A DNA stretch of 48,865 bases from Myxococcota bacterium (GTDB lineage: Bacteria; Myxococcota_A; UBA9160; PR03): the NCBI GenBank assembly GCA_041611735.1, contig JBFIML010000034.1, forward strand, positions 1 through 48,865, read 5' to 3'. Under the pieces are notes generated by a model. That model saw only the letters and a program-made list of their open reading frames with translations, was not told the DNA's origin and searched no databases. A program made the position numbers and the translations under genes. Below are positions 4,292 through 46,504 of this stretch, piece by piece. How positions within the stretch are numbered: position 1 is the first letter of the stretch; every line of letters starts with the position of its first letter.

Positions 4292-4319
4292 AGATCGGCC
4301 AAACCGCTCGAAGGGTTTA
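4292..4319 (-). promoter_or_regulatory. sigma28/FliA-like promoter
   Basis: TAAA-16 nt-GCCGATCT upstream of the BTLCP RBS. Confidence 0.55.
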
Positions 4320-4454
4320 GCGTAACCCTTTGTCGGATATGGGAAAACTAGAAAAGATGCAGAGTTCCGAGGAGAAGCCGGGGTGGGTTACGGGCTGGCT
4401 GCCGGCTCCTTAGGCGGAAGCCGGCGCGCAGCCTCCGCCACGGCCCTCGACGCC

Positions 4455-4580
4455 TCAGGCCGGCAGGCCGCAGAGCCTCACGCCCACGAAGAGCAGCACG
4501 AAGAAGGCGACCATGGCGGGAATGCCGCCCACCACGTACAGGATCGAGGCCAGGTCGGTCCGGCCGTGTTGCTCGTCCAC
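4455..4580 (-). CDS. Small single-pass membrane protein (41 aa)
   Basis: Manual translation MDEQHGRTDLASILYVVGGIPAMVAFFVLLFVGVRLCGLPA; GGAGG about 8 nt before the GTG; GC3-rich codons. Confidence 0.7.
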   Translation of the reverse strand: MDEQHGRTDLASILYVVGGIPAMVAFFVLLFVGVRLCGLPA

Positions 4581-4697
4581 CCCGTGGGCCTCCCGTTCGA
4601 AGCAGCGCGGAAGCTAGCGGGGGCCTCGGCGGGCGTCGAGACGAGCGGCCGCCCGGCCCGCTTGCCGAGGCGGGCCGCGGCCCGCAGCATCCCGGGG

Positions 4698-8437: not shown

Positions 8438-8464
8438 TCAAGCACCGCCTGCGTTGGCCGATAC
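8438..8464 (+). promoter_or_regulatory. sigma28/FliA-like promoter of pilT
   Basis: TCAA-15 nt-GCCGATAC. Confidence 0.6.
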
Positions 8465-8518: not shown

Positions 8519-9664
8519 ATGGACCGGGAGAAATTCCACCGCCTCCTTCGCCTCGGGCTGGAGAAGGGGGCGTCGGACATCCACTTCCAGGTGGGCTGTC
8601 TGCCGCTGTACCGCTTCCACGGGGAGCTGGTCGAGCTGCGCTACAAGGTCCTCGAGCCCAAGGACACCGAGAACATGGCCCGCATGCTCGTCGAAGCGGA
8701 CCCTCGGGAGCCGGGCCTCGACTTCAACGAGCTCGACCTCGCCTTCGAGCTGCCCGGCGAAGGACGCTTCCGCGTCAACATCGCTCGTCAGCGCCGTTTC
8801 TACAACATCGTGCTGCGGGTCATCCCGCTCCAGGTCGGCACCTTCGAGGAGCTGAACCTGCCCGGGGCCCTGCGCGACATCGCCCAGCTGCGGCGGGGTC
8901 AGATCCTGGTGACGGGTGCCACGGGCATGGGAAAGTCCACCACCCTCGCCACCATGATCAACGAGATCAACCGCACCCGGAAGTCGAAGATCGTCACCAT
9001 CGAGGATCCCATCGAGTTCGTGTTCGGCCACCAGAAGAGCATCATTACCCAGCGCGAGATCGGGACGGACACCGCCTCCTTCCCCGAGGCCCTGCGCGCC
9101 GCCTTGCGCCAGGACCCGGATGTGATCATGGTGGGCGAGATGCGGGACCTGGAGACCGTGGATACCGCGCTCAAGGCGGCCGAGACCGGACACCTCGTCC
9201 TCTCGTCGATCCACACCAACGACGTGGTCTCGACCATCAATCGTCTGGTCTCCTTCTTTCCCACCGAGGAGCAGCCCCAGGTACGGGCACGGCTCGTGGA
9301 GAACCTGAAAGCGGTGGTCTCGCTGCGGCTGCTGGCCAACAAGAAGCGCTCGGCCCGGGTTCCGGCCGTCGAGGTGATGCGCAGCACCCGGACCATCCAG
9401 GAATGCATCAAGGACCCGGCGCGCACCACCGAGATCACCGAGTTCCTGGCGCGCGGCCGCCCCGAAGGCATGCAGACCTTCGACCAGCACCTCTTCGACC
9501 TGGTGCGTGCCAACAAGATCTCGGTAGAGACCGCCCTCTCCGCTGCCACCCACCCGACCGATTTCAAGACCAAGCTCGCGCTGGAGGGCGCCGATCCCGA
9601 CGAAACGTCGGTGGCCGACCAGCCGCTCGAGAGGCTCGAGGTCGGGCCCGACGAGCGTTTCTAG
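8519..9664 (+). CDS. pilT: PilT/PilU family type IV pilus retraction ATPase
   Basis: GASDIH, Walker A GATGMGKST, TIEDPIE, LRQDPDVIMVGEMRD, AETGHLVLSSIHT, GMQTFDQ; GGAGG upstream. Confidence 0.92.
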   Translation: MDREKFHRLLRLGLEKGASDIHFQVGCLPLYRFHGELVELRYKVLEPKDTENMARMLVEADPREPGLDFNELDLAFELPGEGRFRVNIARQRRFYNIVLRVIPLQVGTFEELNLPGALRDIAQLRRGQILVTGATGMGKSTTLATMINEINRTRKSKIVTIEDPIEFVFGHQKSIITQREIGTDTASFPEALRAALRQDPDVIMVGEMRDLETVDTALKAAETGHLVLSSIHTNDVVSTINRLVSFFPTEEQPQVRARLVENLKAVVSLRLLANKKRSARVPAVEVMRSTRTIQECIKDPARTTEITEFLARGRPEGMQTFDQHLFDLVRANKISVETALSAATHPTDFKTKLALEGADPDETSVADQPLERLEVGPDERF

Positions 9665-11341: not shown

Positions 11342-11644
11342 CTAGAACATCGGCGGGAGCATGGAGGACTTGGTCGTCCGCCGAGCCTTCCTCCGCCGCG
11401 TGGCCTTCTTGCGGCGAGCCTTCTTGCGGCCACCGGCCTTCTTGCGACCGGCCTTCTTCCGCGTGCCCTTGCGGCGGCGCGTGGCCTTCTTGCGGCCGGC
11501 CTTCTTGCGGCGGGCCTTCTTGCGGCCAGCCTTCTTGCGGCGGGCCTTCTTGCGACCGGCCTTCTTCCGCGTGCCCTTGCGGCGGCGCGTGGCCTTCTTG
11601 CGGGTCGCCTTCTTCCGCGTAGCCTTCTTACGACGAGCTGCCAT
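11342..11644 (-). CDS. Histone H1/protamine-like Lys/Arg-rich protein (100 aa)
   Basis: MAARRKKATRKKATRKKAT... with pentapeptide repeats; GGGGG RBS-like run before ATG 11644. Confidence 0.85.
   Translation of the reverse strand: MAARRKKATRKKATRKKATRRRKGTRKKAGRKKARRKKAGRKKARRKKAGRKKATRRRKGTRKKAGRKKAGGRKKARRKKATRRRKARRTTKSSMLPPMF
11385..11635 (-). repeat. Imperfect 15-nt tandem repeat encoding RKKA(T/G/R), with a larger internal duplication
   Basis: Recurrent ggccttcttgcg units; RKKATRRRKGTRKKAGRKKA occurs twice. Confidence 0.9.
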
Positions 11645-11768: not shown

Positions 11769-11796
11769 CTATCGGAGCCCGCAACCGGCGACTTGA
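11769..11796 (-). promoter_or_regulatory. sigma28/FliA-like promoter of the histone-like gene
   Basis: TCAA-16 nt-TCCGATAG. Confidence 0.55.
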
Positions 11797-15224: not shown

Positions 15225-15252
15225 TCAAGTTTTCCCCGGAGCGCTCCGATGC
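15225..15252 (+). promoter_or_regulatory. sigma28/FliA-like promoter of the ABC exporter
   Basis: TCAAGTTT-12 nt-TCCGATGC, 7 nt before GTG 15260. Confidence 0.55.
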
Positions 15253-15259: not shown

Positions 15260-15925
15260 GTGTCGGGGGACGCCATCGCCGTGGAGGGGCTCTCCAGGGG
15301 GTTCGGGGCCCGGGAAGTCCTCCGGGGGCTCGAGCTGCGAGTTGGCTCGGGAGAGTGGATCGGCCTCGCCGGGGAGAACGGCTCCGGCAAGTCGACCCTG
15401 CTGCGAATCCTGGCCGGGCTGCTCGAGCCGGGTCGGGGCCGGGTCCGGGTGGCCGGCCTCTCCCCGGCCGGGGCTCGGGCCGCGGCCCGGGTGGGCTGGT
15501 GCGGCGGGGGCGACGGGGGCTTCTCGCGGCGACTTCCGCTGAGAGCCGACCTGGAGCTGCACGGGCGTCTGCTCGGACTCTCGGGTCGCGGCCTGGGTCG
15601 GCGGATCGAAGAGCTGGCGGAGCGGCTCGGCTTCGCCTCCCACCTCGGTCTGGCGGCGGAGCGCTGCTCCACGGGCCTGCGCCAGCGTGCGGCCCTGGCC
15701 CGCGCCCTGCTCCACGATCCGCCCGTGCTGCTCCTGGACGAGCCCCTGCGCGGCGTGGATCCCGCTTCTGCTCTGGGGCTGGCCGATGAACTGCGCCGCG
15801 CCCGGTCTCCCGCGAGCGCGGTCTGGGTGTCGCACTCCCCGGCGGAGTTCGCGCGCGTGGCGGACCGGGTGCTGGAGCTTCGAAGCGGACGCCTGGCGGG
15901 GGCGACGCGAGCCCGGGCCGCGTGA
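15260..15925 (+). CDS. ABC exporter ATP-binding subunit
   Basis: GENGSGKST, signature CSTGLRQR, LLLDEP, H-loop SH. Confidence 0.9.
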   Translation: MSGDAIAVEGLSRGFGAREVLRGLELRVGSGEWIGLAGENGSGKSTLLRILAGLLEPGRGRVRVAGLSPAGARAAARVGWCGGGDGGFSRRLPLRADLELHGRLLGLSGRGLGRRIEELAERLGFASHLGLAAERCSTGLRQRAALARALLHDPPVLLLDEPLRGVDPASALGLADELRRARSPASAVWVSHSPAEFARVADRVLELRSGRLAGATRARAA

Positions 15926-16731
15926 GACGCTTCACCCGCCAGATCCTGGCCTTCGGCCGGCGTGACCTCGCCCTGGAACGCAACGCCGCGCCCTCCCTGG
16001 CGCTCGGCCTGGGATCGGGCGTGCTGGGACTGCTCGCCTATCACTACGTGGGCCGGCTCGTCTCCGACGCTCCGCCGGCTCCCCTGGCCGGTGGCGGCTA
16101 CTTCCCGTTCGTGTGCACGGGCCTGATGGTGCAGCTCGTGACGGTTGCGTTCCTCGGCGCCATCGGGGGGGGGCTGGCCCGCGAGGCCGCCGAGGGCACG
16201 CTCGAGGCGGCGCTCGCCTCGTCGGCCTCGCCGGCAGCGCTGGTGATCGGACGCAGCCTGATGCCCACGGCCCTGGCGGGCCTCCAGGCTGGCCTGTACG
16301 GAACGGTGGGGGCCGTCGCTCTGGGCCTCGACCTCTCGGGCGCGAACCTGCCGGTGGCCGGCCTCGCCCTGGCCACGACGCTGGTCGGATGCGCGCCCTT
16401 CGGTCTGCTCGGCGCGGCGGCGTGGCTCGAGGTGCGCCGGCCCGGCCTGGTGACAACGCTGGTGGGCCTGGGCTTCGGGCTCGTGGGCGGGGTCTACTTC
16501 CCGCTGGCGTTGCTGCCGGAGCCCGTGGCCCGGGCAGCGGCCTGGATCCCCCTGGCCGCCGGGCTGGAGGCGGTTCGCGCCTCCCTGCTGGAGGGCGCAG
16601 GGCTGGTCCAGGTGGCGGCGCCGCTCGGCCGCGCCGCGCTCTCCGCGCTGCTCGGTCTGCCCCTCGGCCTGGCGCTGCTCGGCTGGGGCCTCGCCCGCGC
16701 CCGGCGCCGGGGCACGCTGGCCCTCGCGTGA
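15922..16731 (+). CDS. ABC-2 type exporter permease
   Basis: Six-TM pattern, REAAEGTLE, GGVYFPLALLP; GTGA overlap with the ATPase. Confidence 0.88.
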   Translation: MRRFTRQILAFGRRDLALERNAAPSLALGLGSGVLGLLAYHYVGRLVSDAPPAPLAGGGYFPFVCTGLMVQLVTVAFLGAIGGGLAREAAEGTLEAALASSASPAALVIGRSLMPTALAGLQAGLYGTVGAVALGLDLSGANLPVAGLALATTLVGCAPFGLLGAAAWLEVRRPGLVTTLVGLGFGLVGGVYFPLALLPEPVARAAAWIPLAAGLEAVRASLLEGAGLVQVAAPLGRAALSALLGLPLGLALLGWGLARARRRGTLALA

Positions 16732-17189
16732 GCCCAGGCGGCTCGGACGCCGCGGCGCAGCGGCGCTGACACCAGCGCGAGCCAGCGGCGCGGGGGAAGG
16801 TCCAGGCGTCGCCAGCGGGCTTCCGGAGCGGCGCTGCGCCGGGTCACCGCCACGCCAAGCACCCGCTCGGAACCGACCCAGCCATCGGGACGCGGCCGGC
16901 GGTCGCCGCGCAGCAGCCAGCGCTGCCCGCGGGCGCGCACGACCCGATGCAGCACCAGGCGGCTCCCGGCCAGGGCCAGCACCACATCGCCCCGACGGGG
17001 TGGCCGCGCCACGAGACACACGCAATCGCCGGGCCGGAGCGCCGGCACCATGGAGTGGCCCCACACCCGGAGCACGAGCGGGCCCGCGCGCAGGGCGCTC
17101 CCCAGGGCGTCCAGCGCCGCCGGCTCCGCCAGCGCGGCGGCCGGGTCGAGGCCGCGCGCCTCAGGCGGCGCAGGCCGCGGAGCCCGCAT
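16494..17189 (-). CDS. S24/S26 family peptidase (putative RiPP leader peptidase)
   Basis: GHSMVPALRPGD (Ser), LHRVV (His), LRGD...DG; no signal peptide; 3' end overlaps the convergent permease. Confidence 0.78.
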   Translation of the reverse strand: MRAPRPAPPEARGLDPAAALAEPAALDALGSALRAGPLVLRVWGHSMVPALRPGDCVCLVARPPRRGDVVLALAGSRLVLHRVVRARGQRWLLRGDRRPRPDGWVGSERVLGVAVTRRSAAPEARWRRLDLPPRRWLALVSAPLRRGVRAAWAHARASVPRRRARARPQPSSARPRGRPSSAESAARPSGAATWTSPAPSSREARTASSPAARGIQAAARATGSGSNASGK

Positions 17190-18057
17190 CGGGCAGCCAG
17201 ACGAAGCGCGCCACCCTGGCGTCCCGGGCGAAGCCGAGCCGCACGATCGGCACGCGCTCGGCCAGCGCCGCCGCCAGGGCGAGGGTACGGCGAGCCGCCG
17301 GCGGATCGTGCACCGGGGCGAAGGCGTTGCCGAGCACGGCCGCGGCGGCTGCCGCGCCGCGGAGCGGGCGCGCCACGTTGTCCGGGGCGTGGTGGATGGC
17401 ATAGATCGCCTCGAGAGGCGCCGAAGCGGCGAGCGAGAGGGGGGCATCCCCATGCCACGGGGTTCCGAAGACGCGGAAGCCGCTCGCGTCGGGACGGATC
17501 ACCACGCGGTCGTCGGAGAGCACCGCGGCCTCCGCGTGACGCTGCATGAGCCGGGCGAGGGTCGTCTTTCCGGCTCCGGACGGCCCCGTGAAGAGCCGCG
17601 CACGGCCCTGGCGCGTCACGCCGCAGGCGTGCACCAGGAGCCCTCCGGCCCGGGCCACGCGGTGCAGGAAGACCACTTCGTCCAGGGGGTAGGCGAGCGG
17701 GTAGTGGCATTCGCGCACGTAGAAGGAGTCCGGAGCGAGGGTCACCTCGCCGCGGCGGAAGCCCGCATCGAAGCGGGCCAGGCGCTGGAGGCGGCCCCGG
17801 ATGCGCAGGACGAACAGCCACTGGCGCCCATGGCGGACCACGTCGAAGATGCCCCCGCCGGAGTCGTAGTGGCGCAGGCCGCCCGGGGGCAGGCGGGGCT
17901 CTGCGATCCGCACCCGTACCCGCACGTCCGCCGGTTCCGCAGCCACGGCGAAGCGGCGCAGCGGGCCGTCGGGCCACTGCCAGGGCAGCTCCGGCGGCAC
18001 CTCCACCGCCAGGCGCAGCCCCGCCACGCCCAGCCCACGCCAGCGCCTGCGGGCCAC
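17161..18057 (-). CDS. HPr kinase-related P-loop kinase (RiPP-cassette type)
   Basis: LLVHACGV, LFTGPSGAGKTT, LSDDRVV, GTPWHG. Confidence 0.82.
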   Translation of the reverse strand: MARRRWRGLGVAGLRLAVEVPPELPWQWPDGPLRRFAVAAEPADVRVRVRIAEPRLPPGGLRHYDSGGGIFDVVRHGRQWLFVLRIRGRLQRLARFDAGFRRGEVTLAPDSFYVRECHYPLAYPLDEVVFLHRVARAGGLLVHACGVTRQGRARLFTGPSGAGKTTLARLMQRHAEAAVLSDDRVVIRPDASGFRVFGTPWHGDAPLSLAASAPLEAIYAIHHAPDNVARPLRGAAAAAAVLGNAFAPVHDPPAARRTLALAAALAERVPIVRLGFARDARVARFVWLPDAGSAACAA

Positions 18058-18060
18058 GGT

Positions 18061-18255
18061 CTAGGAGCCGATGTTCATGCAGAAGACCGTGGGCTGGCTC
18101 GACTGCTGGCAGGAGCCCGCGGCGCCGCCGAAGCCTCCCGTGCCCACGTCCATCTTGCAGTTGTCCGGGAAGCTGGCCATGACGTCCAGCTCCACCAGCC
18201 GCACCCGCGGCGCCGCGTAGGGACGGCGCGCCCGCGTCCGCTTGGCCTCGCTCAC
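18061..18255 (-). CDS. Putative RiPP precursor peptide (64 aa)
   Basis: MSEAKRTRARRPYAAPRVRLVELDVMASFPDNCKMDVGTGGFGGAAGSCQQSSQPTVFCMNIGS. GGAGG RBS; GTG overlaps the rSAM stop; YxxPxV leader; Cys33/49/59; C-terminal Ser. Confidence 0.85.
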   Translation of the reverse strand: MSEAKRTRARRPYAAPRVRLVELDVMASFPDNCKMDVGTGGFGGAAGSCQQSSQPTVFCMNIGS

Positions 18256-19466: not shown

Positions 19467-19753
19467 GTCCCCACCTCCTCGACGCAGCCGGCCTCGACGA
19501 GCTGGGCCAGGAACTCGTCCAGGTCCGCGCGCGCGCGCGCCGGCTCCACCTCGAAGGCCCGCGTCACGGCGCGGACCACGGCGCCCGCGGGCCGGCGCCC
19601 ATCGAGGCGCTCCCAGACGAAGGTCCCGACCTCGTTCAGGGTGAAGAGACCCATCTCCTGGGCCCGGTGGCGAACCGGCACCAGGATCGTCTCTCCCGCG
19701 ATGCGCCGGGCCACGATCCCCGGCCGGCGCGCCCAGCTCCGCTCGTCGCTCAT
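19463..19753 (-). CDS. PqqD family RiPP recognition element (RRE)
   Basis: IVARRIAGETILVP...LFTLNEVGTFVWERLDG...ARADLDEFLAQL; 96 aa. Confidence 0.93.
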   Translation of the reverse strand: MSDERSWARRPGIVARRIAGETILVPVRHRAQEMGLFTLNEVGTFVWERLDGRRPAGAVVRAVTRAFEVEPARARADLDEFLAQLVEAGCVEEVGT

Positions 19754-20907: not shown

Positions 20908-20975
20908 GGCGTCCTCCACGTCCTCCGGGGAGGAGCGGAGCCGCTCCTCGGGGCTTCTCCCCAGGCGACGCCTCC

Positions 20976-21003
20976 GTATCGGACCGGAGTCCGGCCGGCT
21001 TGA
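20976..21003 (-). promoter_or_regulatory. sigma28/FliA-like promoter of the RiPP operon
   Basis: TCAA-16 nt-TCCGATAC. Confidence 0.55.
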
Positions 21004-22285: not shown

Positions 22286-22292
22286 GGTGCCC

Positions 22293-24179: not shown

Positions 24180-24182
24180 GGC

Positions 24183-30853: not shown

Positions 30854-32724
30854 GCCTGCTGCCCCCCGGCGGCCGGCTGCGCGCCGCCGCGGGGCAGGCC
30901 GTAGCCGTAGTAGCGGTAGAGCCCGGTGCGGTCGTCGCGCGGCGCCTTGTTCAGCACCACGCCGTAGACGCGCGCGCCGGCGCGGTCGAGCTGGCGCACG
31001 GCTGCCCGCATGAGCCGGGCGTCGAAGCGGCGTGGCTCGACCACGAACAGGACCCCGTCCGCCAGGCCCGAGAGGAGCGAGGCATCCACCAGGCCGCCCG
31101 CCGGAGGCGAGTCCATCAGGACGAAGTCGTAGGTCCCGCGCAGGCCGCTGATGAGCTGGGTGAGACGCGCCGACTCGATCAGCTCCGCCGGACTCGGAGG
31201 CAGGGTTCCGCACGGAAGCAGGTCGAGCCCCGCAACCGCCGTGGCGCGCAGCGCGGTCTCCAGGGTCGCGTCGCCGGCCAGCACGTCGGCGAGGCCGGCC
31301 GTCTTGGAGAGCGCGAACAGCCGGTGCAGGGAGGGTCTGCGCAGGTCGGTGTCCACCAGCAGCACGCGCCGACCGGCCTGGGCCAGGGACACGGCCAGGT
31401 TGGCCAGGATCGTGGACTTGCCCTCCTCGGGACCGGTGCTCGTCACCAGCAGCACGCGGCGCGGTCGGTCCACGTCGCTGAAGCGCACGTTGGTACGCAG
31501 GCAGCGGAACGCCTCGGACTCCAGGGATCCGGGCAGGGCGGCCACCAGCGGAGCCGAGCCGCCCCGGCCGTCGAAGACGGTCACGGCACCGAGCGTCGGC
31601 AGCCCCAGGGCCCGGCCCACGTCCTCGGCGTTCGCGACGCTGCGGTCCAGGGAATCCAGCAGGAACGCCAGGGCCAGGGCCGCACACAGCCCGAGCACCG
31701 CAGCGATGGCCAGGTGCCGCGCCGAGCGCGGCGCGATCGGCGCGGCGGGCGTGCGGGCCCGCTCCAGGATGCGCAGGTCCGCCTGCGTGGCGCCCGCCGA
31801 GAGATCGGCCTCCTTCAGCTTCTTGAGCAGGACCTCGTACACCTGGTGATCGAGGTCGGCGTCCCGCTTCAGGATGCGGTACTGGATCAGCTTGCGATGG
31901 TCTCCGGCCCGCGCCTGCTGCTCCGAGTGCAGGCGGCCGCGCAGGCTGACCAGCCGGGCCTGAGCGTCCACCACCTTGGGATGGCGCTCCCGATAGCGGC
32001 GCAGGAGCTGTGCGATCTCCACCTCCGCCGCCGCGATCTGGGCCCGCAGCCCATCGTCCCGGGCGGGGGCCGCCAGGGAGGCACGCTCCCCCTCGTCGGC
32101 GCCCTCGATCTCCTCGGACGCCAGGTAGTCGAGCAGGCGGTTCTCGGAGCTCCGCAAGCGCTCCCGGAGCTGGTCGATCTCGCGGGTGAGCCACTCCACT
32201 GAACGCTGCCGCGCCGCGTCCTCCTGCTCGCGGGTGTGATCGATGTACGCCTCGGCGACCGCGTTGGCCACGTCGCGCGCCGCTTCGGGAGTCGCCCCGT
32301 GGCCGCTCACCAGCACGATCCGCGTCTCGCGCAGGTGATCGACGACGATGGCCGCCTTGGCGAGCGCGGCCGCGGCAGCGCGCTGGTCCGCATCCGCCTC
32401 GGCGTCGATCCAGCCGAGCTGCAGCGCAGCGCGGGCCGCCACGGGCTCGCTGCGCAGCACCTCGAGCTGGGTCTCGAACGATTGCCGCTCGAGCAGGTAG
32501 CTCTCCAGGGCGCCGCCCCGATCGGAGAGCACACCCTTGCCGAGCCCCATCCCCACCACGAGCCGGGCGGTGGCCCGGTACACGGGAGGCATCCGCCAGG
32601 TCAGGAACGAGGCCACCGCCAGGAAGGCGAGCGCGGTGCCCAGGGCGATCCGCCAACGGCGGCGCAGCACCTGGAGATGATCGATCCAGTGTCGCTCCTC
32701 GCTGTTCATCTTCGGGTCGCTCAA
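30850..32724 (-). CDS. wzc: Polysaccharide co-polymerase/tyrosine autokinase; start 32724 or 32709
   Basis: Two TMs plus coiled coil, EAFRCLRTN, STGPEEGKST, VDTDLRRP, DSPP, Tyr cluster YRYYGY. Confidence 0.92.
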   Translation of the reverse strand: MSDPKMNSEERHWIDHLQVLRRRWRIALGTALAFLAVASFLTWRMPPVYRATARLVVGMGLGKGVLSDRGGALESYLLERQSFETQLEVLRSEPVAARAALQLGWIDAEADADQRAAAAALAKAAIVVDHLRETRIVLVSGHGATPEAARDVANAVAEAYIDHTREQEDAARQRSVEWLTREIDQLRERLRSSENRLLDYLASEEIEGADEGERASLAAPARDDGLRAQIAAAEVEIAQLLRRYRERHPKVVDAQARLVSLRGRLHSEQQARAGDHRKLIQYRILKRDADLDHQVYEVLLKKLKEADLSAGATQADLRILERARTPAAPIAPRSARHLAIAAVLGLCAALALAFLLDSLDRSVANAEDVGRALGLPTLGAVTVFDGRGGSAPLVAALPGSLESEAFRCLRTNVRFSDVDRPRRVLLVTSTGPEEGKSTILANLAVSLAQAGRRVLLVDTDLRRPSLHRLFALSKTAGLADVLAGDATLETALRATAVAGLDLLPCGTLPPSPAELIESARLTQLISGLRGTYDFVLMDSPPAGGLVDASLLSGLADGVLFVVEPRRFDARLMRAAVRQLDRAGARVYGVVLNKAPRDDRTGLYRYYGYGLPRGGAQPAAGGQQA

Positions 32725-32741
32725 GGTCGTTCCACCCCTCC

Positions 32742-33641
32742 TCAGAAGAAGGATTCCGGTACGACGAGCAGGTCGCCGTCCCGCAGCTCCACGTTCTCCA
32801 CCCCGTCGCGTCCCCGCACCAGGTCCTGCAGCCGGATCCGCTCCTCCGTGCGAGCCTCGCCCTCGCCCCGCACGAGCCGCGCGCGGTTGCCTGCCGCCCA
32901 TTCGCTGAAGCCGCCGGCCGCGAGCAGCGCGTCCAGGGCGGTGGACGCCTGGCGCAGCACGTAGGTGCCCGGCCGCACCACCTCCCCCACCACGCGCACG
33001 CGCGCTTCGTCCAGGGCGGGGGCTGCGCCGGCCTCGCTGCGACGCGCCACCACCAGCACGTCCCCGGCCTGAACGGGGGGATTCTGGTCCGCCCGCCCTT
33101 CGCGCAGCAGCGCAGCGAGATCGATGGCGAGCTGCTCCCGCGGCGCCCGCTCGCCCGGCTGCGGCAGCGTCTCGCCCGGCTTCGGCTCGCCGAAGCGCAG
33201 CAGCGTCGCGCGATCGCCCGCATCCGGGCTGGGTCCGCCGCCTGCCAGCAGGAGGTCGAGCAGCCGCATGCCCGGACGCACCGGATGACTGCCCGGCCGC
33301 GCCACCGCCCCGAGCAGGGCCGCCTTGTGCCGCGTCGACTCTCGCAGCCGCACCACCACGCGTGCCTCGCGCAGGTAGTCGCGCTCCAGACGCCCGCGGA
33401 GCTCCTCGGCCACCTGCTCGCAGCTGCGGCCGGCCGCCGGCACCGCTCCGGCGAGCACGTGCTGCAAGGTCCCGTCGTCGCCCACCCGGACCTCACCGGA
33501 GAGGTCCGGCTCCCGCCAGACCTCCACGTGCACGCGGTCCCCGGGACCGATGCGATAGACGTCCCCCGTGGGCTCGGCGACCGCGCTCGTCCCCGCGGCG
33601 ACCAGCCCGGCCAGGGCCAGCCCGATCCGACTAACGCGCAT
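32742..33641 (-). CDS. Polysaccharide export OPX protein (Poly_export + SLBB), periplasmic type
   Basis: YRIGPGD...VWREPDLS...DDG, two SLBB repeats, ends VPESFF; no lipobox or C-terminal outer-membrane helix. Confidence 0.9.
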   Translation of the reverse strand: MRVSRIGLALAGLVAAGTSAVAEPTGDVYRIGPGDRVHVEVWREPDLSGEVRVGDDGTLQHVLAGAVPAAGRSCEQVAEELRGRLERDYLREARVVVRLRESTRHKAALLGAVARPGSHPVRPGMRLLDLLLAGGGPSPDAGDRATLLRFGEPKPGETLPQPGERAPREQLAIDLAALLREGRADQNPPVQAGDVLVVARRSEAGAAPALDEARVRVVGEVVRPGTYVLRQASTALDALLAAGGFSEWAAGNRARLVRGEGEARTEERIRLQDLVRGRDGVENVELRDGDLLVVPESFF

Positions 33642-34839
33642 AGACCAGCCCAAGGGTCACCCGGTTCTGGTGGAAGTCGTCGAGTTCATGGTCTCCCCCG
33701 TTGCGCCAGTGCCTCCAGGCCAGGCGCGCCCGCAGGCGCCGGGTGAGCTGCCGGTCCAGGTGCAGACCCAGCGCCACGAAGCGGTTCGAGTCCAGGCCCG
33801 GGCCGGAGGCGCGGAAGTGGCTACCCAGCAGCTCGAGGCCCAGGCTCGTGCGCGGTCCCAGCTCGCGGTCCACCCCCAGCTCGGCGCTGGTCTCCACGTA
33901 CTCCTGGCCCGCCACGTCGGCGGTGAACTGCCGGCCCAGGTTCAGGCTCGCCGACCAGCCTCGCGGTCCGGTCCAGCGCAGCTGCGTGCGCAGGAGCAGC
34001 CGGTCCTGGGCGTCGCCCTCGTCGAAGTCGAGACGCCCCCAGCCGACCGCAGCGTCCAGGGAGAGGCGCCGGGTGCCGCGCAGGCGGACGCCGCCGTAGC
34101 CGGCCAGCTCGCGGAAGTCCAGGGAGGAGAGCGGGTCGAAGCGACGCTCGCGACCCTCCCCGCGCAGGTAGAAGAGCGCGCGGCGTCCCAGGGCGCGCTG
34201 CCACTCCAGATGGGCCCCGAGCTCCTGGTAGTCGCCCTCGACCCTGGCGCTCTCCAGCGACCCGTCGCCGTCCAGGTCCACCTCGCTGACGAAGCCGGGC
34301 GTGGTGAAGTGCACCGCCCGGACGCCCAGGTCCAGGGTGTTGCGGCGGCGCAGCTCGCGCTGCCAGCCGAGCTCCGCCTGGGCCCGGTTGGTCTGCACGC
34401 GGTTCAACCCGTCGTCCGTGGGACGGCCCAGCTGCAGGGGACGTGGTACGTAGGCGTCGGACAGGCGCAGGTGGAAGCCTCGCCCGAGCTCGAGGTCCGC
34501 CGATCCGAGCAGCGTCCAGAACTCGTCATCGAGGACGGCATGGCGCGCGTAGCGACGCAGCTCGCCGGCCAGGTCGAATTCGGTGCGCAGCCGGCTGCGT
34601 TGCCAGCCCACCTGGAGGCGCGGCTCCACCCACACGCCCCAATCGCTGCGCTCGTCTTCGCCGCTCGAGAACACGTTGTCGTCGAAGACCCCCGTCACTC
34701 CCAGCGAGGGACGCACCGACACGCCTTCGCGCGCGTCCTCGGCCCGGGCCGTGACCCCAGCGAGCGTGGCGAAGGCCAGCGCCAGGCCGAGGCCGGCGCG
34801 CCGCAGCCGGCGGCCGCGCGGGGGGCCGGGCGCGCTCAC
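33631..34839 (-). CDS. Outer-membrane beta-barrel for polysaccharide export (EpsX/BBP2-like)
   Basis: Signal peptide, FDDNVF, alternating beta strands, C-terminal NRVTLGLVYAR; adjacent to OPX. Confidence 0.8.
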   Translation of the reverse strand: MSAPGPPRGRRLRRAGLGLALAFATLAGVTARAEDAREGVSVRPSLGVTGVFDDNVFSSGEDERSDWGVWVEPRLQVGWQRSRLRTEFDLAGELRRYARHAVLDDEFWTLLGSADLELGRGFHLRLSDAYVPRPLQLGRPTDDGLNRVQTNRAQAELGWQRELRRRNTLDLGVRAVHFTTPGFVSEVDLDGDGSLESARVEGDYQELGAHLEWQRALGRRALFYLRGEGRERRFDPLSSLDFRELAGYGGVRLRGTRRLSLDAAVGWGRLDFDEGDAQDRLLLRTQLRWTGPRGWSASLNLGRQFTADVAGQEYVETSAELGVDRELGPRTSLGLELLGSHFRASGPGLDSNRFVALGLHLDRQLTRRLRARLAWRHWRNGGDHELDDFHQNRVTLGLVYAR

Positions 34840-36161
34840 AGCTCCCCCGGCAGCATGGGCGAGAGGGGCCGATCGTACAGGCGCCTCAGCTCGTGCTCGA
34901 TGCGGACCATCTCGTTGCCGGGCGGAGTGCCGAAGCGGGCCAGGAATCCCGCCACCAGGGTGCGAAACACCGGGCTCTCCAGGTTCGCGCTGGCGGCCGC
35001 TTCGTCCACCACGGCGTCCGGAGCGCCCTCGCGCAGGCCGAGCTCGCGAAGCACGCCCAGGTAGGCGGCCTCGTCGGCTCGGCGCCGCACGAGCCGCAGG
35101 GCGTCGACGCCGCTTCCGGCGGCCAGGCGCGCTCGCACCACGTGCTCGCCGGCCGGGAGCGGGAGGGTGAGGATCGTCTCCCAGGCGAAGTCCGCCGCGT
35201 CGGCGTGGGGCTGGAGGGCCATCCCGTAGCGCCCATCCACCTCCCAGATCTGGCGGGCGGCCCCGTGCACGCGAGCCGCGAGGCCGTACACGCCCGGCTG
35301 CTCCAGGACCAGGTGCCACTCGAACTCGGCGGGCTCCGGGCCGGCGACGGCCCAGGCCCCGGCGGAGGCGGGGCGCCCGAGCCGGCGCTGGCTGCGTGCG
35401 CCGCCCCGGCTCGCGTCGAAGTGCTCGCCTTCCCGGACCCGCGGCGACCCCTCCTCGGGCAGCCGGTGCTCGAGACCGAACGCTTGGACCAGGGTACGGG
35501 CCTTGGCGCCGAAGGTGAGCGCGCGGCCCGCGCTCCATCCTCCCGCCGGTGCGATGCAGAGCGACCGCCAGGCCACCAGCTCGATCTGCTGCACCCGGGC
35601 GGCCGGCGAGAGCTCCACCGCCAGCTGGTGGGGCCCCGGGGCCAGGGGCTGCAGGGTCGGAGCCCAGTCCACGCCGAGCGGGCCCGGGTCGAGGACGCCC
35701 ACCTCGCGGCCGTCGACCCACCAGCGCTGCTGCCCCTGCCCGTGGACCACGAGGGCGTACAGGGCGCTTCCGGGCAGCGACACGGAGATGTGGCGAGGCT
35801 CCTCGGACCCGCCGAGGCGCACGTCGTCGACCCGGACCTGCAGGGCCCGCCCCACGGGCACGCGGCGACCTCCGGCGCCGGTGCCGAGCTCGCGGGCATC
35901 CGGGCACAGCAGCCCGAACACGTCGCGGGCGTCGTGGTCCGGGTCGAGGGCGCCGTGGAGCCCGAGACCTTCCACCAGCCGCGCGGCCCATTCGGTGTGG
36001 GTGACGGCGCGCCGGCTGGCCTGGGGCTCGCGCACGTCCACGGGCGGAAAGGAGAGCGGATCCCCTCGCAGCGAAAGCGGCGCGAGGACCGCCGCCAAGG
36101 CCACGGCGGCAGCCAACCAGCGCATCCGGCGGACAGGCAGGCTCGGCAAGACGACTCCCAT
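34836..36161 (-). CDS. Hypothetical exported protein with repeated beta-sandwich-like domains; start 36161 or 36125
   Basis: Signal peptide MRWLAAAVALAAVL; two similar segments (WWVDG...LAPGPH and WEVDG...LPAGEH). Confidence 0.7.
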   Translation of the reverse strand: MGVVLPSLPVRRMRWLAAAVALAAVLAPLSLRGDPLSFPPVDVREPQASRRAVTHTEWAARLVEGLGLHGALDPDHDARDVFGLLCPDARELGTGAGGRRVPVGRALQVRVDDVRLGGSEEPRHISVSLPGSALYALVVHGQGQQRWWVDGREVGVLDPGPLGVDWAPTLQPLAPGPHQLAVELSPAARVQQIELVAWRSLCIAPAGGWSAGRALTFGAKARTLVQAFGLEHRLPEEGSPRVREGEHFDASRGGARSQRRLGRPASAGAWAVAGPEPAEFEWHLVLEQPGVYGLAARVHGAARQIWEVDGRYGMALQPHADAADFAWETILTLPLPAGEHVVRARLAAGSGVDALRLVRRRADEAAYLGVLRELGLREGAPDAVVDEAAASANLESPVFRTLVAGFLARFGTPPGNEMVRIEHELRRLYDRPLSPMLPGEL

Positions 36162-36205: not shown

Positions 36206-36233
36206 CCATCGGCGCTGGCAGGTTTTTGCTTTA
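36206..36233 (-). promoter_or_regulatory. sigma28/FliA-like promoter of the polysaccharide locus
   Basis: TAAA-16 nt-GCCGATGG. Confidence 0.55.
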
Positions 36234-39768: not shown

Positions 39769-39779
39769 GCGCGGCCCGC

Positions 39780-42531: not shown

Positions 42532-43614
42532 ATGCAATTCGACCTCGACGAGGATCGCGCGCTGCTCAAGAGCTCGACCCGGGAGCTGCTCGACAAGGAG
42601 AGCGCACTCTCCGACGCGCGCCGGGTGATGGAGGAGGAGCCCGAGGGCTTTTCGCGCGCCTTCCACGGCCAGCTCGGGCAGCTCGGCTACCTGGGCCTCG
42701 CCGTGCCCGAGGCGGAGGGCGGCTCCGGGGCCGGCCCGCTGGGGCTCGTGGCGGTGCTCCACGAGATGGGCCGGGTGGCCCTGCCGGGACCGTACCTGGA
42801 CCTGGTGTGCGCGGGCGAGGCATTGCGTCGCGCGGAGAACGAGGAAGCCGCCCGTTGGCTGGCGGCGCTGGTGGCCGGGGAGAAGCTGGTGCTGCCGGCC
42901 GAGCGGGAGAGCGCCGAGGGCGTGGTGCCCCTCCCGCCCCGGACGCGCTTCGCCCGGGGCCGCGTGAAGGGGCGCAAGAGCTTCGTCCCCTACGGCGCCA
43001 GCGCCGACGCCCTGCTGGTCACCTGCGTCGAGGGCCTCGCCCTGGTGCCGCGTCCCGAGGCGGGCTGGTCCAGCAGGCCGCTGGAGACCCTGGACCACGC
43101 CCAGCGCTTCGTGGAGATGGAGCTCGACGCCCCGGGCGTGCTGGTGGCGGAGGAGCCGCGCAGCGACGCGGTGCTCGCGGCGGCCTCCCGCCTGGGCTGC
43201 CTGGGCGCCGCTGCCCTCTTGCTGGGCCTCGCCGAGCGCTGTCTCGAGCTCAGCGTGGGCTACCTGACAGAGCGCAAGGCGTTCGGCGTCCCGATCGGGA
43301 GCCTCCAGGCCCTCCAGCACCGGGCCGCGGACATGCTGCTGCGCGTGGAGAGCACGCGCTCGGCCGTCTACCGGGCCGCCTGGAGCGAGGAGCACGACCC
43401 GGATCGGGCCCCGTACCTGGTGGCCGTGGCCAAGGTCTACGCCGGCGAGTCGGCCCGGCTCGTGTGCGGCGAGACGATCCAGCTGTTCGGCGGCGTGGGC
43501 TTCACCTGGGAGTACGACCCGCACATCTACTACAAGCGGGTGAAGACGCTGGAGCAGCGCTACGGCCGGACCCGGGACGCCCTCGAGATCGCCCTGGCTC
43601 ACTCCGGCCTGTGA
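42532..43614 (+). CDS. Acyl-CoA dehydrogenase-like partner subunit
   Basis: RKAFGVPIGSLQALQH, IQLFGGVGFTWE; degenerate N-terminal FAD motif. Confidence 0.92.
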   Translation: MQFDLDEDRALLKSSTRELLDKESALSDARRVMEEEPEGFSRAFHGQLGQLGYLGLAVPEAEGGSGAGPLGLVAVLHEMGRVALPGPYLDLVCAGEALRRAENEEAARWLAALVAGEKLVLPAERESAEGVVPLPPRTRFARGRVKGRKSFVPYGASADALLVTCVEGLALVPRPEAGWSSRPLETLDHAQRFVEMELDAPGVLVAEEPRSDAVLAAASRLGCLGAAALLLGLAERCLELSVGYLTERKAFGVPIGSLQALQHRAADMLLRVESTRSAVYRAAWSEEHDPDRAPYLVAVAKVYAGESARLVCGETIQLFGGVGFTWEYDPHIYYKRVKTLEQRYGRTRDALEIALAHSGL

Positions 43615-45011
43615 GCGGTCCGGGCCCCGGCCTCGAGGCGTGCGACGCGCAGGACCGGGTCGGGGCAGGCTGCCTGCTCCGCCAGGCGCAGTCCCCGGGT
43701 GACGGGCGGCGCCTCCTCCGCCGCGTCGTGCAGCCAGACGACGGGGCCCGGCGGCAGCGCCCCGGGCCGCGCGAAGAACTCCTCGGTCCAGGTGAGCTCG
43801 CGGATTCGCGTGGCGCGCAGCCGATAGGCGAGCTCTCCGGAGATGGGGGCGGGCACGACCAGCGTGGGACGGCCGGGGCCGTCGATCCAGGCGGCCAGAC
43901 ACGCGAGGCCGGCTTGGGCGGTCTGGCGACGCGCCCGCTGCTCCGCCCCGAGCGACGCCAGATGGGTCAGGTTGCCCAGGTAGCCGCCCAGGGCCAGCAG
44001 CACGAGCGCGGCGCCGGCGCCTCGCAAGCCCGGCGAGAGGGGCCGGGGCGCGGCGCGCACCAGGGCCCACAGACCCACTGCGGCCAGCAGGGTCCCCAGC
44101 ACCAGGTCCGGCACGAAGAAGCGATGGAAGACGGAGCGGCCGGTCAGGGCGAGCCCAGCCAGGATCCCGTGATGGCCGGCCAGTGCGAGGACGAGCACCC
44201 GGGAGGAGCGCCGGAGGCCGAGAGCCAGCGCCCCCACACCGGCCAGGAGCAGGAGCGCCTCGCTGGCGTGGGTGAGCCACGCCGCGCGCAGCCAGACCAG
44301 GGTCTCCAGGACTCCGAAGGGACGCGGGGGACGCGCCCGGTCGTAGCGCTCCGCGGCCGACAGCATGCCGAGCCACTCCCCGTTGGCGACCCGATCGGTC
44401 AGGACCCACAGCAGCGCCGCACTCGCCAGCAGGGCGCCCTGGGCCAGGAGCTCGCGCACGCGCCGGCCGGCGGGCGCGAGGCCCGGCTCCGCGGCGCCGA
44501 GCAGGGCGGCCAGCAGGGCCCCGTCGGGCCGTGAGAGCGCCACCAGCAGGAGCGCCAGGCGGCGCCCGCGCGTGGACCCCGCGAGGTGCCGCTCCACCCA
44601 TCCCGTCAGCGCCACGGCGAGGGTCGTCACCGAGTTGAAGGCGAGCCCGTGCTCCAGGACCAGCGGGCTTGCCAGGGCGAGCAAGCCCACGCCGACGGCG
44701 GCGGCGCTGGCGCCGGGCAACAGGCACAGCGCGATCCGGGTGGCGAGGGTGGCCAGCAGGCCCAGGTGCAGGGCGCCCAGCACCCGCCAGGCCACCAGGG
44801 GGTCGAGTGGCGCAGCGGCGACGCTCCAGGCCAGCCAGATCTCCAGGGGCTTGCTGACCGTCGCGGCGGACACCGGTGCGAGGGCCTGGGCGAGGCGCGA
44901 CCAGCCGTCGTTGTCCGGCGCGACGCCGAGCCAGCTGCCGACCCCCATGGCCAGCCCGAAGCCCGCGGCGCCGACGGCCAGGGAGACGAGTGCGGGCCGC
45001 CCCGCGCTCAC
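43599..45011 (-). CDS. Polytopic membrane protein, probable GT-C glycosyltransferase
   Basis: Many TM segments, PDND acidic loop after TM1, LSRPDG; GTGA overlap with the GT2 gene. Confidence 0.6.
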   Translation of the reverse strand: MSAGRPALVSLAVGAAGFGLAMGVGSWLGVAPDNDGWSRLAQALAPVSAATVSKPLEIWLAWSVAAAPLDPLVAWRVLGALHLGLLATLATRIALCLLPGASAAAVGVGLLALASPLVLEHGLAFNSVTTLAVALTGWVERHLAGSTRGRRLALLLVALSRPDGALLAALLGAAEPGLAPAGRRVRELLAQGALLASAALLWVLTDRVANGEWLGMLSAAERYDRARPPRPFGVLETLVWLRAAWLTHASEALLLLAGVGALALGLRRSSRVLVLALAGHHGILAGLALTGRSVFHRFFVPDLVLGTLLAAVGLWALVRAAPRPLSPGLRGAGAALVLLALGGYLGNLTHLASLGAEQRARRQTAQAGLACLAAWIDGPGRPTLVVPAPISGELAYRLRATRIRELTWTEEFFARPGALPPGPVVWLHDAAEEAPPVTRGLRLAEQAACPDPVLRVARLEAGARTAHRPE

Positions 45012-46429
45012 GCGCCGCGGTGTCGGGCCACCGCCACCAGCGACGTCCCCGGCCACGGCAGCAGCCCGTCGAGGATGCGCAGGAGCGGCGTTCCCCAGTC
45101 CACGGCCTTGAGCTGCAGCTTGCTGAAGTGACGCCGCCCCAGCACCCGGCCGTTCCACCACCAGCCCGGCACGGTGGCGCGGTTGAAGTCGAGCAACGCC
45201 TCCATGGCGAAGCCGTTGCGTTCCAGGGCCGCGCCCAGGGACGCGCGCGTATAGCGACGTTCGTGGCCGAGGGCCGCGTCCAGGCTGTTGAAGCGCTCCG
45301 GACCCTGGGGCACCAGCAGGATGGCGCGCCCCCCCGGCCGCAGCGCGGCGCGCAGGTTGCGCAGCGCTGCGTCCTCGTCGGGCAGGTGTTCGAGGACGTT
45401 CAGGCAGATGACCGTGTCGTAGTCCCCGAGCAGCTTGCAGAAGTCGTCGAATTCGGTCACGTCCACCCGGGCCACGTCCATGTAGGGCTTGCCGCGCGCA
45501 TGGTTGGCCAGGTAGTCCAGGTAGTGCGGATTCACGTCCGAGACGGTGTAGCGTTCCCGGGGCGTCAGGCTGCGGGTCAAGTTGCCGAGCCCGGCCCCGA
45601 TCTCCAGCACCCGCTCGCCCACCCACGGCCGGATCGTGTCCGCCATCCAGCGGTTGAAGCGCGGCACCGCCGCCATGGAGGTGAGGATGTTCGAGCCGTA
45701 CTCGTCCTCGGCGTAGAGGTCGTCGATCACCCCGAAGCGGAGCATCGCGGTCACGGCCCGGATGGCGTCGCGCCAGCCGATCTTCTTGCCCTCTTCGTAG
45801 GTGCGTCCCGCATAGCGCACGGGCACCTCGAAGATGCGCGCGCCTCGTTTGGCCAGCTTGAGGGTGAGCTCCGGCTCGATGCGGAAGTCGTCGCTGCGGA
45901 TCGGGATCGATTGCAGGAGCCGGGTGCGCACCGCCTTGTAGCAGGTCTCCATGTCGGTCAGGTTGAGATCCGTGAATAGATTGCACAGGAAGGTGAGCAG
46001 CCGGTTCCCCAGGGTGTGGCGGAAGTAGAGCACGCGCCGGTAGTCGCTCGGCAGGAAGCGCGAGCCGAAGACTGCGTCGGCGCCCTCGGCCACGAAGGGC
46101 AGCAACAGGCGCGGGAGGTCGCGCGGGTCGTACTCGAGGTCGGCGTCCTGGACGACGGTGACCCAGCCGCGCGCGCGCGCGACCCCGCTGCGCACCGCGG
46201 CGCCCTTGCCACGGTTGCTCGTATGCTTCACCAGGACGATGCGCCGGGGGTCGCTGCGGGCCAGCTCGCGGAGCACCGCGCCGGTCCCGTCCGTGGAGCC
46301 GTCGTCCACCAGGACCAGCTCGAGCCGGGCCAGCAGCGGGCTCTCCACCGCCAGCAGGCGCCGCACCGCCTCGGCCACGAGGTGGCGCTCGTTGTAGACG
46401 GGCATCACCACGGAGAGGTGGACGGCCAT
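45008..46429 (-). CDS. GT2 polyprenol-phosphate glycosyltransferase (DPM1-like) fused to a class I SAM methyltransferase
   Basis: MPVYNE, DDGSTDGT, QDADLEYDP, TDMETCYK; C-terminal LEIGAGLG and NVLEH. Confidence 0.92.
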   Translation of the reverse strand: MAVHLSVVMPVYNERHLVAEAVRRLLAVESPLLARLELVLVDDGSTDGTGAVLRELARSDPRRIVLVKHTSNRGKGAAVRSGVARARGWVTVVQDADLEYDPRDLPRLLLPFVAEGADAVFGSRFLPSDYRRVLYFRHTLGNRLLTFLCNLFTDLNLTDMETCYKAVRTRLLQSIPIRSDDFRIEPELTLKLAKRGARIFEVPVRYAGRTYEEGKKIGWRDAIRAVTAMLRFGVIDDLYAEDEYGSNILTSMAAVPRFNRWMADTIRPWVGERVLEIGAGLGNLTRSLTPRERYTVSDVNPHYLDYLANHARGKPYMDVARVDVTEFDDFCKLLGDYDTVICLNVLEHLPDEDAALRNLRAALRPGGRAILLVPQGPERFNSLDAALGHERRYTRASLGAALERNGFAMEALLDFNRATVPGWWWNGRVLGRRHFSKLQLKAVDWGTPLLRILDGLLPWPGTSLVAVARHRGA

Positions 46430-46477
46430 GGTCGATCCTCCGGAGGTCCGCTTGCGGGAAAACCCCGACCCTCTCCG

Positions 46478-46504
46478 GGATCGGCAGGCCGGGGGCAGCC
46501 TTGA
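46478..46504 (-). promoter_or_regulatory. sigma28/FliA-like promoter of the GT2-methyltransferase operon
   Basis: TCAA-15 nt-GCCGATCC. Confidence 0.55.

Follow-up and report, generated by a model that had tools for sequence, protein, structure and literature searches.

A promoter motif of the sigma-28 type, T(C/A)AA-N15/16-(G/T)CCGAT, occurs seven times in the 48,865-bp stretch of Myxococcota DNA analyzed here (the window). The motif is most likely a -35/-10 promoter that is read by the one sigma factor of the FliA/WhiG family found in the genome. The genes that it precedes across the genome are centered on the turnover of cyclic di-GMP (c-di-GMP) and on signaling. The window spans the whole of contig G000:C34 in a draft genome of 4.09 Mb that has 72% G+C, 118 contigs, and an estimated completeness of 95%.

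A two-box motif aimed at genes

Seven sites had been reported in a previous reading of the window (the sequence-only reading). All seven are present on the strands claimed, although the earlier coordinates were 2 nucleotides (nt) too long at one end. The spacer is N16 in five of the strict matches and N15 in two. In dinucleotide-preserving shuffles of the window, 0.04 plus 0.06 matches (about 0.1 in total) were expected, versus the 7 observed, and none of 100 shuffles reached the observed counts. By our own gene calls, every site points toward a gene on its own strand that starts 10 to 167 nt farther downstream. When sites were scored with a position weight matrix (PWM), these seven, with scores from 15.5 to 25.2, were the only ones in the window at ≥13; one extra match, at 12.2, is in coding sequence. 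Of the 59 strict intergenic sites in the genome, 7 are on this contig, which makes up 1.2% of the DNA, and its site density is the highest among the larger contigs (6 sites with a PWM score of ≥16, or 1.23 per 10 kb).

The sequence-only reading had proposed that intergenic and coding DNA be compared across the genome. An untrained scan with spacers from N8 to N24 gave 56 matches at N16, of which 47 were intergenic and 44 were oriented within 300 nt of a start codon. At N15 there were 15 matches, 12 of them intergenic, and every other spacer gave 0 to 10 matches, mostly coding. Thus, the motif is concentrated at N16 and N15, is mostly intergenic, and is aimed at genes. The 59 intergenic N15/N16 sites align as cTCAAg-N15-GCCGAT(a/c)c, with spacers and flanks that are not conserved. 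Among these strict sites, which were selected for CCGAT, 46/59 have a G at -1, and A or C is favored after the T. In the -35 box TCAA is favored over TAAA, and a trailing G is present in 32/59 sites. The strongest columns of the refined PWM are the central C-G-A. At PWM scores of ≥16 there are 150 sites (119 intergenic and 107 oriented); at ≥13 there are 283 sites (157 intergenic and 140 oriented), with a median distance of 47.5 nt from the T of CCGAT to the start codon.

The hexamers that are most enriched upstream of genes are TATACT, TATGCT, TAGACT, and TTGACA, which are of the TTGACA/TAnnnT type. Because the housekeeping promoter of this genome is ordinary and is enriched separately, the motif belongs to an alternative sigma factor.

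The distances between the motif and the start codon have a sharp peak. Seventeen sites have the T of CCGAT at exactly 10 nt from the start codon and 7 sites have it at 11 nt, and no other distance within 30 nt is seen at more than 3 sites. The start codon is 7 to 13 nt past the T at 29 of the 140 oriented sites. The peak at 10 to 11 nt was not built in, as the choice of start codons ignored the motif. The same spacing to an ATG is kept in relatives before the activator gene near fliA, which is described below. About a fifth of the promoters are predicted to give leaderless mRNAs, with the start codon, about 10 nt past the T, also being the point where transcription begins. A promoter in the window, that of an ABC exporter (GTG start; 15225-15262), belongs to this predicted class.

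The sigma factor, its relatives, and the control of fliA

A gene of the fliA/whiG type was sought in the genome, and one was found, outside the window (C13:60701-61465). Its product scores 274.7 bits with TIGR02479 (cutoff, 189.6) and 258.2 bits with NF005413 (cutoff, 201). With the WhiG equivalog model NF004935 the score is 290.6, under the cutoff of 343, so the protein is filed as a member of the FliA/WhiG family and not as a WhiG equivalog. It is single in that it is the one FliA-family match over the cutoff among the eight sigma-70-family matches that were classified. The others are one RpoD, four RpoD/RpoS-like proteins, one RpoH-like protein, and one extracytoplasmic function (ECF)-type protein, the only ECF protein examined. 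Among solved structures, the best matches of the sigma factor are 6pfv (235.6 bits) and 6pfj (231.8 bits), which we take to be Streptomyces WhiG complexes; the match to Escherichia coli FliA, 6pmi, is 198.7 bits.

At each of two contig ends, G000:C63:40-90 and G000:C107:3920-3970, there is an identical promoter region. In it, a housekeeping-type promoter, TTGACA-N17-TAGAGT, overlaps a sigma-28-type box upstream of the gene for a 496-aa RpoD/RpoS-like sigma factor (C63:336-1826).

A 2026 preprint (PMC12871210) gives the promoter consensus of actinomycetotal WhiG2 as T(A/C)AA at -35, N16, and GCCGATAA at -10, and that of WhiG1 as CTCA, N16-17, and GCCGAACT. The motif described here, TCAA-N16-GCCGATa, is identical to the WhiG2 consensus and close to that of WhiG1. 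The proposal in the sequence-only reading that the motif is a sigma-28-like promoter is supported, as the motif is a consensus match, orientation specific, and a conserved element. In the literature that we searched, we found no paper on sigma-28 in Myxococcota.

The 80 best loci with relatives of the sigma factor encode proteins that are 82 to 90% identical to it. These loci are in metagenome-assembled genomes that are mostly titled Myxococcota, Myxococcales, or Deltaproteobacteria, with others titled Proteobacteria or Spirochaetales/Spirochaetaceae or bearing other labels. Of 301 sampled genomes of the phylum, 169 encode a sigma factor over the family cutoff; these include 44 of the 47 sampled from the window's order and all 10 from the sister family.

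When other species of the order were scored with the matrix from the window's genome, orthologous genes proved to have kept five of the seven promoters found in the window. The PilT-family ATPase has orthologues that are 73 to 91% identical, and GTCAAG-N14-GCCGATA is found 49 to 97 nt upstream in 29/29 of them, with spacer sequences that differ; in extended loci the count is 20/20. For the basic-protein gene, 18/20 loci have a site at the matching place in the intergenic region that separates rpoZ from a tetratricopeptide repeat (TPR) gene, and one of the two misses has no synteny. Downstream of this conserved promoter there is a small basic open reading frame (ORF) that begins MAARKK (Lys plus Arg, 0.40 to 0.68) in 18/18 relatives. 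The site before the transglutaminase-like gene is kept in 13 of the 15 syntenic loci that carry a homologue. The cassette with a radical S-adenosylmethionine (radical-SAM) maturase is patchy, being present in 7/45 other genomes of the order, and the motif is 34 to 62 nt upstream in all seven. Genomes that have the cassette keep it at a distance of about 10 kb from the PilT-family gene. The first gene of the polysaccharide locus is present in 10/45 genomes and has T(A/C)AAG...sCCGATGAA 154 to 219 nt upstream in 10/10; several of these sites have low scores (12.4 to 14.8), and four score only 12.4 to 12.9.

Occurrence of the motif was also compared with occurrence of the sigma factor by counting the strict pattern TCAAG-N15-KCCGAT in each of 48 listed genomes of the same order. 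Genomes with FliA have 7 to 37 matches, versus 0 to 7 with a reversed-pattern control (0 to 4 in all but one), and the window's own genome has 29 matches, versus 0 reversed. The lowest two counts of the 48, 1 and 4, are those of G108 and G188, which have no FliA beyond paralogues of 30% identity; with two genomes, and with relatives that are not independent, this FliA-less sample is weak. In addition, per megabase G188 ties with G248, and G108 is also without a PilT-family orthologue.

The promoter of fliA itself is of another type. A sigma-54-type box, TGGCACG-N4-GTGCT, is 107 nt before fliA (G000:C13, about 60590). In relatives, a box of the type TGGCAC-N5-sTGCT is 70 to 188 nt before fliA in 77 of 78 cases, versus 0/78 in the reverse-strand control. 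The gene directly upstream of fliA encodes an NtrC-type activator. Also in the neighborhood are genes for a second activator, which has a sigma-28-type promoter of the predicted leaderless class, a PAS kinase, a response regulator, a PilZ protein, and a PP2C phosphatase. Sigma-28-type sites around fliA are kept before the divergent activator gene (52/68 loci), before the convergent PP2C phosphatase gene (52/68 loci), and before the next gene, for a response regulator (58/68 loci). The spacer of the divergent-activator promoter, about 1.9 kb upstream of fliA, has a conserved palindrome, GTCCCGG-N3-5-CCGGGAC, which suggests that an extra regulator binds inside this promoter.

Regulon content, flagella, and the window genes

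Pfam was run on the 100 best downstream genes outside the window and on the window genes. The regulon genes encode proteins with GGDEF and/or EAL domains (10), PilZ proteins (3), an MshEN-domain protein, and two chemoreceptors. Regulators are numerous: there are single-domain and hybrid response regulators, kinases, a sigma-54 activator, a Ser/Thr kinase, a PP2C phosphatase, and a group-2 sigma factor. Surface and structural functions include a pilin-like protein, two PilT-family ATPases beyond the one in the window (three in all), bactofilin, MreB, DivIVA, and a Roadblock/LC7 protein. Also present are Lon, one Hsp70, two lytic transglycosylases, trehalose synthase, a trehalase-like hydrolase, sulfatases, and more than 20 proteins without a family match.

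To obtain frequencies, the complete set of 3,524 called proteins was searched with profiles built from the domains in the regulon; PilZ proteins were left out of the counts, as their profile was too weak. A site precedes the genes for 10 of 19 GGDEF proteins, 7 of 9 EAL proteins, 2 of 4 methyl-accepting chemotaxis proteins (MCP), 13 of 67 receiver-domain proteins, and 3 of 11 T2SSE proteins; the overall value is 140/3,524. Thus, c-di-GMP turnover and signaling are the statistically dominant content, and the regulon is centered on them. The sequence-only reading had pili, glycans, a ribosomally synthesized and post-translationally modified peptide (RiPP), and nucleoid compaction coregulated. 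Sites are indeed carried by the PilT-family ATPase gene, the polysaccharide locus, the radical-SAM/PqqD cassette, and the gene for a histone-H1-like protein, but the dominant theme is c-di-GMP.

The same reading had called the regulon nonflagellar, and the gene content of the genome agrees. Flagellin (PF00669), FlhA (PF00771), the rod/hook C-terminal domain (PF06429, Flg_bbr_C), and FlgM (PF04316) were all sought and none was found, in a draft that is 95% complete. Because four independent families are missing together, a flagellum is unlikely, although absence from a draft of this completeness is no proof. FlhA is patchy among relatives: it is encoded by 48/121 genomes of the class and by 3 of the 8 other genomes of the window's family. 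As the sigma factor is widespread, it has been kept far more consistently than flagella have.

Five FlhA-positive relatives (G051, G123, G153, G173, and G329) all have true flagellins. The six true flagellin genes have boxes of the form TGGCAC/T-N5-TTGCA, which are characteristic of sigma-54. Sigma-54-type boxes are also the common intergenic signal across the roughly 120 kb that surround the flagellar clusters in three relatives. The few intergenic sigma-28-type sites there precede genes for PilZ proteins (two), for GGDEF proteins (two), and for an enhancer-binding protein that is followed by fliL. Because flagellated relatives drive flagellin from sigma-54-type promoters, sigma-28 is uncoupled from flagella, and its role in the clade is regulatory, not structural. 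In several flagellated relatives (G098:C31, G093:C40, G103:C50, and G223:C1), the orthologue of the window's PilT-family gene is separated from flhA by only about 12 to 17 kb. The region in the window may thus once have been next to a flagellar cluster.

The window's promoters and the genes behind them are listed in Table 1. Of the names given to these genes by the sequence-only reading, pilT is confirmed by TIGR01420. The gene called BTLCP (3553-4272) has no Pfam match at an E value of ≤0.01, and its product scores 20.5 bits with the LapG cysteine protease model (cutoff, 320); the Cys/His/Asp pattern is visible, but family membership does not follow. The gene called histone-like does have the expected composition, as its product is a Lys/Arg repeat of the KKATRKKA type, but the 100-aa protein has no Pfam or NCBIfam match and no detected homology to HctB, and so its resemblance to H1 is one of composition only. 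The supposed RiPP operon is a cassette of NTP_transf_5, PqqD, radical-SAM/SPASM, and HprK-related genes with a 64-aa ORF, in which no precursor peptide was established.

TABLE 1 Candidate sigma-28-type promoters in the window and the genes downstream of them
Feature	Position	Strand	Details
Sigma-28-type promoter TAAA-N16-GCCGAT	4294..4319	-	PWM 15.5; 22 nt before start of 3553-4272
Exported 239-aa protein with transglutaminase-like Cys/His/Asp motif (earlier "BTLCP")	3553..4272	-	Motif visible in sequence
Sigma-28-type promoter TCAA-N15-GCCGAT	8438..8462	+	PWM 20.9; 57 nt before PilT-family gene
PilT/PilU-family type IVa pilus ATPase	8519..9664	+	TIGR01420, 426.4 bits (cutoff, 319.1); Pfam T2SSE
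Sigma-28-type promoter TCAA-N16-TCCGAT	11771..11796	-	PWM 22.2; 127 nt before basic-protein gene
100-aa Lys/Arg-repeat protein (MAARRKKATRKKATRKK...)	11342..11644	-	Histone-H1-like by composition
Sigma-28-type promoter TCAA-N16-TCCGAT	15225..15250	+	PWM 21.1; GTG start of ABC ATPase 10 nt past T of CCGAT
ABC exporter: ATPase and ABC-2 permease	15260..16731	+	Pfam ABC_tran, ABC2_membrane
Sigma-28-type promoter TCAA-N16-TCCGAT	20978..21003	-	PWM 25.2, best in window; 59 nt before gene 19750-20919
Five-gene cassette: NTP_transf_5, PqqD-like, radical-SAM/SPASM maturase, 64-aa ORF, HprK-related-kinase-like	17161..20919	-	Pfam, NCBIfam
Sigma-28-type promoter TAAA-N16-GCCGAT	36208..36233	-	PWM 17.5; 167 nt before first gene of polysaccharide locus
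Polysaccharide locus, 11 codirectional called genes	21110..36041	-	Gene calls, Pfam, NCBIfam
Sigma-28-type promoter candidate TCAA-N15-GCCGAT	46480..46504	-	PWM 18.9; 51 nt before GT2-methyltransferase gene; not conserved
Fusion of glycosyltransferase family 2 (GT2) and methyltransferase (45008-46429) and following 470-aa gene	43599..46429	-	Pfam

The polysaccharide locus encodes a first protein without an assigned function, a beta-barrel porin, a Wza-like exporter, a Wzz/tyrosine-kinase-like protein, a Wzy-like polymerase, glycosyltransferases, and an amidotransferase of the Asn-synthase type. From the packing of its genes, it is probably a single operon. It resembles loci of the PEP-CTERM type at scores below the cutoffs, both for the amidotransferase (440.8 versus 816.9) and for a TIGR03016-like outer-membrane protein (64.2 versus 90.85).

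An eighth, weaker copy of the motif had been placed at 7764-7790 on the minus strand, before a gene labeled AsmA-like. We rejected it: its -35 box reads TCAG and not TCAA, and its PWM score of 8.9 is below the levels at which intergenic enrichment is seen. The label fared no better, as the 630-aa gene that follows (5811-7703) has no Pfam or NCBIfam match; it also has no homologue in 20 syntenic loci. This gene looks like a lineage-specific insertion between conserved neighbors. Elsewhere in the window, at 39334-41237, an RtcB RNA ligase gene (540 bits) is paired with an archease gene downstream of a GH38 alpha-mannosidase-like gene, with no link to the motif.

Weighing the explanations and comparison with known systems

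The motif with its statistics, orientation, and conservation, the sigma gene, and the gene content were observed directly. From these results, we infer the reader of the motif, the start positions, the regulatory cascade, and the physiological role, in the last of which we have less confidence than in the promoter and its sigma factor. RNA polymerase with the FliA/WhiG sigma factor would read TCAA-N16-GCCGAT, less often with N15 or TAAA, and about 100 to 140 promoters of this type would form one regulon. fliA would be transcribed from the sigma-54 promoter beside the gene for an enhancer-binding protein. The chain would then run from a signal to the NtrC-type activator and sigma-54, on to sigma-28, and from there to a switch in c-di-GMP and surface behavior. 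The core of the regulon would consist of GGDEF, EAL, PilZ, and MshEN proteins, joined by regulators and kinases, chemoreceptors, PilT-family ATPases, proteins of polarity and the cytoskeleton, and surface functions. The window's share would be the transglutaminase-like protein, the polysaccharide locus, the radical-SAM peptide cassette and the neighboring exporter, and the H1-like basic protein.

A wider proposal can be made only tentatively. In a clade of uncultured Myxococcota at the level of an order to a class, a WhiG-like sigma-28 may have become detached from flagella and, placed under sigma-54 and an NtrC-type activator, may serve as the master switch of a c-di-GMP network. It would control more than half of the GGDEF/EAL genes, three PilT-family motors, polarity proteins, an exopolysaccharide locus, a peptide-modification cassette, and the H1-like protein, much of this as leaderless mRNA, and it would be kept with or without flagella. 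Such a switch would be convergent with the hctB program of Chlamydia and the WhiG program of Streptomyces, possibly with feedback via a c-di-GMP-responsive anti-sigma factor.

Several points weigh against assigning the motif to this sigma factor, or against parts of the regulon. The assignment is made from sequence, by the identity of the consensus and by co-occurrence. The PWM, an iterated two-block matrix with duplicates removed, had this same genome as its training set, which makes the intergenic bias partly circular; the spacer histogram is free of this circularity. Of the 150 sites with PWM scores of ≥16, 31 are inside called genes. The gene calls were made with our own simple codon log-odds caller, which gave 3,524 genes over 90.4% of the genome; intergenic DNA makes up 9.8%. 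One genome, G143, has only a C-terminal fragment of fliA and yet has 16 strict matches. The fragment (G143:C13:88212-88442) holds the last 77 residues of the sigma factor (74% identity) in an open frame of 118 codons; either a pseudogene or a break in the assembly could explain it. Outside the class, counts of the pattern do not track FliA: in family f17, 0/23 genomes have it at an E value of ≤1e-40, and these have 2 to 32 matches, coding and intergenic pooled. The classical marker of a sigma-28 regulon is unavailable, as 0/11 flagellin-family loci of the five flagellated relatives have the motif upstream at a score of ≥12.

No anti-sigma factor was identified either. FlgM (PF04316) was not found in the genome, a search for partner switching (HATPase_c_2/RsbW-like and STAS) gave weak matches only, mostly within large kinases, and no gene beside fliA resembles one for an anti-sigma factor. 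Two of the window's own promoters are also doubtful members of the regulon. The GT2-methyltransferase site, which had been counted as a member, is strong here but is not conserved: it is found at 2/6 homologues, both times weakly (12.4 at 73 nt; 12.2 at 482 nt, where the N terminus of the homologue is cut), and is absent from 4/6, so we retain it as a candidate only. The ABC exporter is syntenic in 2/20 loci, with site scores of 16.9 and 9.0, and is poorly supported. The tie that had been drawn between this exporter and the RiPP cassette comes down to a shared promoter type.

It is hardly credible that the motif is no promoter at all but either a site bound by a transcription factor or a dispersed repeat. 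The conserved palindrome in the spacer of one promoter, that of the activator gene near fliA, is what such an explanation would have in its favor. However, conservation is confined to two short boxes with a set distance between them, and the sequences inside and around the pair differ from site to site and from species to species; the sites are strictly oriented toward genes; and the sharp distance of 10 to 11 nt to the start codon fits the initiation of transcription, not a repeat or an operator. A promoter that is read by another sigma factor, either the RpoH-like protein or one of the four RpoD/RpoS-like proteins, is a better alternative, but still a very unlikely one. Several other sigma-70-family proteins are encoded, typical heat-shock genes (those for Lon and one Hsp70) are downstream of sites, and the phylum has some families without FliA whose strict counts are not low. 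RpoH and group-2 sigma factors read other boxes, however, and GCCGATA with T(A/C)AA at N16 is the documented signature of sigma-28/WhiG, unlike TTGACA/TAnnnT. Furthermore, three conserved sites flank fliA, and the two FliA-less genomes of the order have the fewest matches.

The remaining alternative, which was that of the sequence-only reading, accepts the promoter and differs in what the regulon does. It would be a life-stage program of development or dispersal in the manner of Chlamydia or Streptomyces, in which the nucleoid is condensed by the H1-like protein and the surface is remodeled. The gene for the H1-like protein does stand behind a strongly conserved sigma-28-type promoter, in parallel to hctB; the sigma factor is nearer to WhiG-type chains than to E. 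coli FliA; and polysaccharide genes, trehalose synthase, lytic transglycosylases, DivIVA, MreB, and bactofilin are in the regulon. Even so, we consider such a program rather unlikely, since c-di-GMP enzymes and signaling proteins dominate statistically and the basic protein, without homology to HctB or to any family, has a function that is guessed from its composition.

A sigma-28 regulon centered on c-di-GMP has parallels and differences with each of the systems known for this sigma family. It resembles the flagellar class III genes that are under FliA in E. coli and Salmonella and under SigD in Bacillus, both in its boxes (GCCGATAA at -10 and the TAAA type at -35) and in its chemoreceptor, PilZ, and EAL targets. 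E. coli FliA drives ycgR and pdeH. In contrast to those systems, no flagellin, FlhA, rod/hook protein, or FlgM was found here, and the flagellated relatives have their flagellin on sigma-54-type promoters. The spacer is mostly one base longer than that of TAAA-N15, and the regulon is much larger. The polar flagellates Vibrio and Pseudomonas have flagellar hierarchies in which sigma-54 acts first and FliA acts next. An NtrC-type activator gene and a sigma-54-type promoter upstream of fliA give the same arrangement here, but the predicted cascade would persist without flagella.

Another likeness is to the WhiG factors of Actinomycetota. The WhiG2 consensus, T(A/C)AA-N16-GCCGATAA, is shared, the bacteria are likewise high in G+C and nonflagellated, and the sigma factor described here scores highest against WhiG-type entries. 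The targets predicted for WhiG in Actinomycetota include type IV pili, c-di-GMP metabolism, transcription factors, and specialized-metabolite genes (PMC12871210). The present case differs in being from a metagenome-assembled lineage of Myxococcota, in missing the cutoff for the WhiG equivalog, in having fliA with a sigma-54-type promoter, and in having many targets that look leaderless. Chlamydia trachomatis also has sigma-28 without flagella and has a histone-H1-like basic protein among its targets (PMC12282069). In that study, chromatin immunoprecipitation sequencing (ChIP-seq) finds only hctB and tsp as targets. There are thus two promoters there, versus about 100 to 140 here, no homology was detected between the basic proteins, and no developmental cycle is known for the Myxococcota lineage.

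The type of promoter, the sigma family, and the existence of sigma-28 without flagella (in Chlamydia and Actinomycetota) were already known. New are the lineage, the size of the regulon and its focus on c-di-GMP, and the uncoupling from flagellin even in flagellated relatives. Also new, as predictions from sequence, are the sigma-54-type promoter of fliA, the leaderless class, and a conserved H1-like target that parallels hctB. Sigma-28 is the textbook flagellar sigma factor, with few exceptions, which are Chlamydia and Streptomyces with other Actinomycetota; the lineage described here is a third, unrelated one, with a highly conserved sigma-28 and a predicted regulon of about a hundred operons. 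For this uncultured group, the analysis provides a regulatory map, predictions of promoters and start codons, the leaderless class included, and targets that can be tested. Flagellin under sigma-54 in this clade changes how flagellar hierarchies are to be inferred from genomes.

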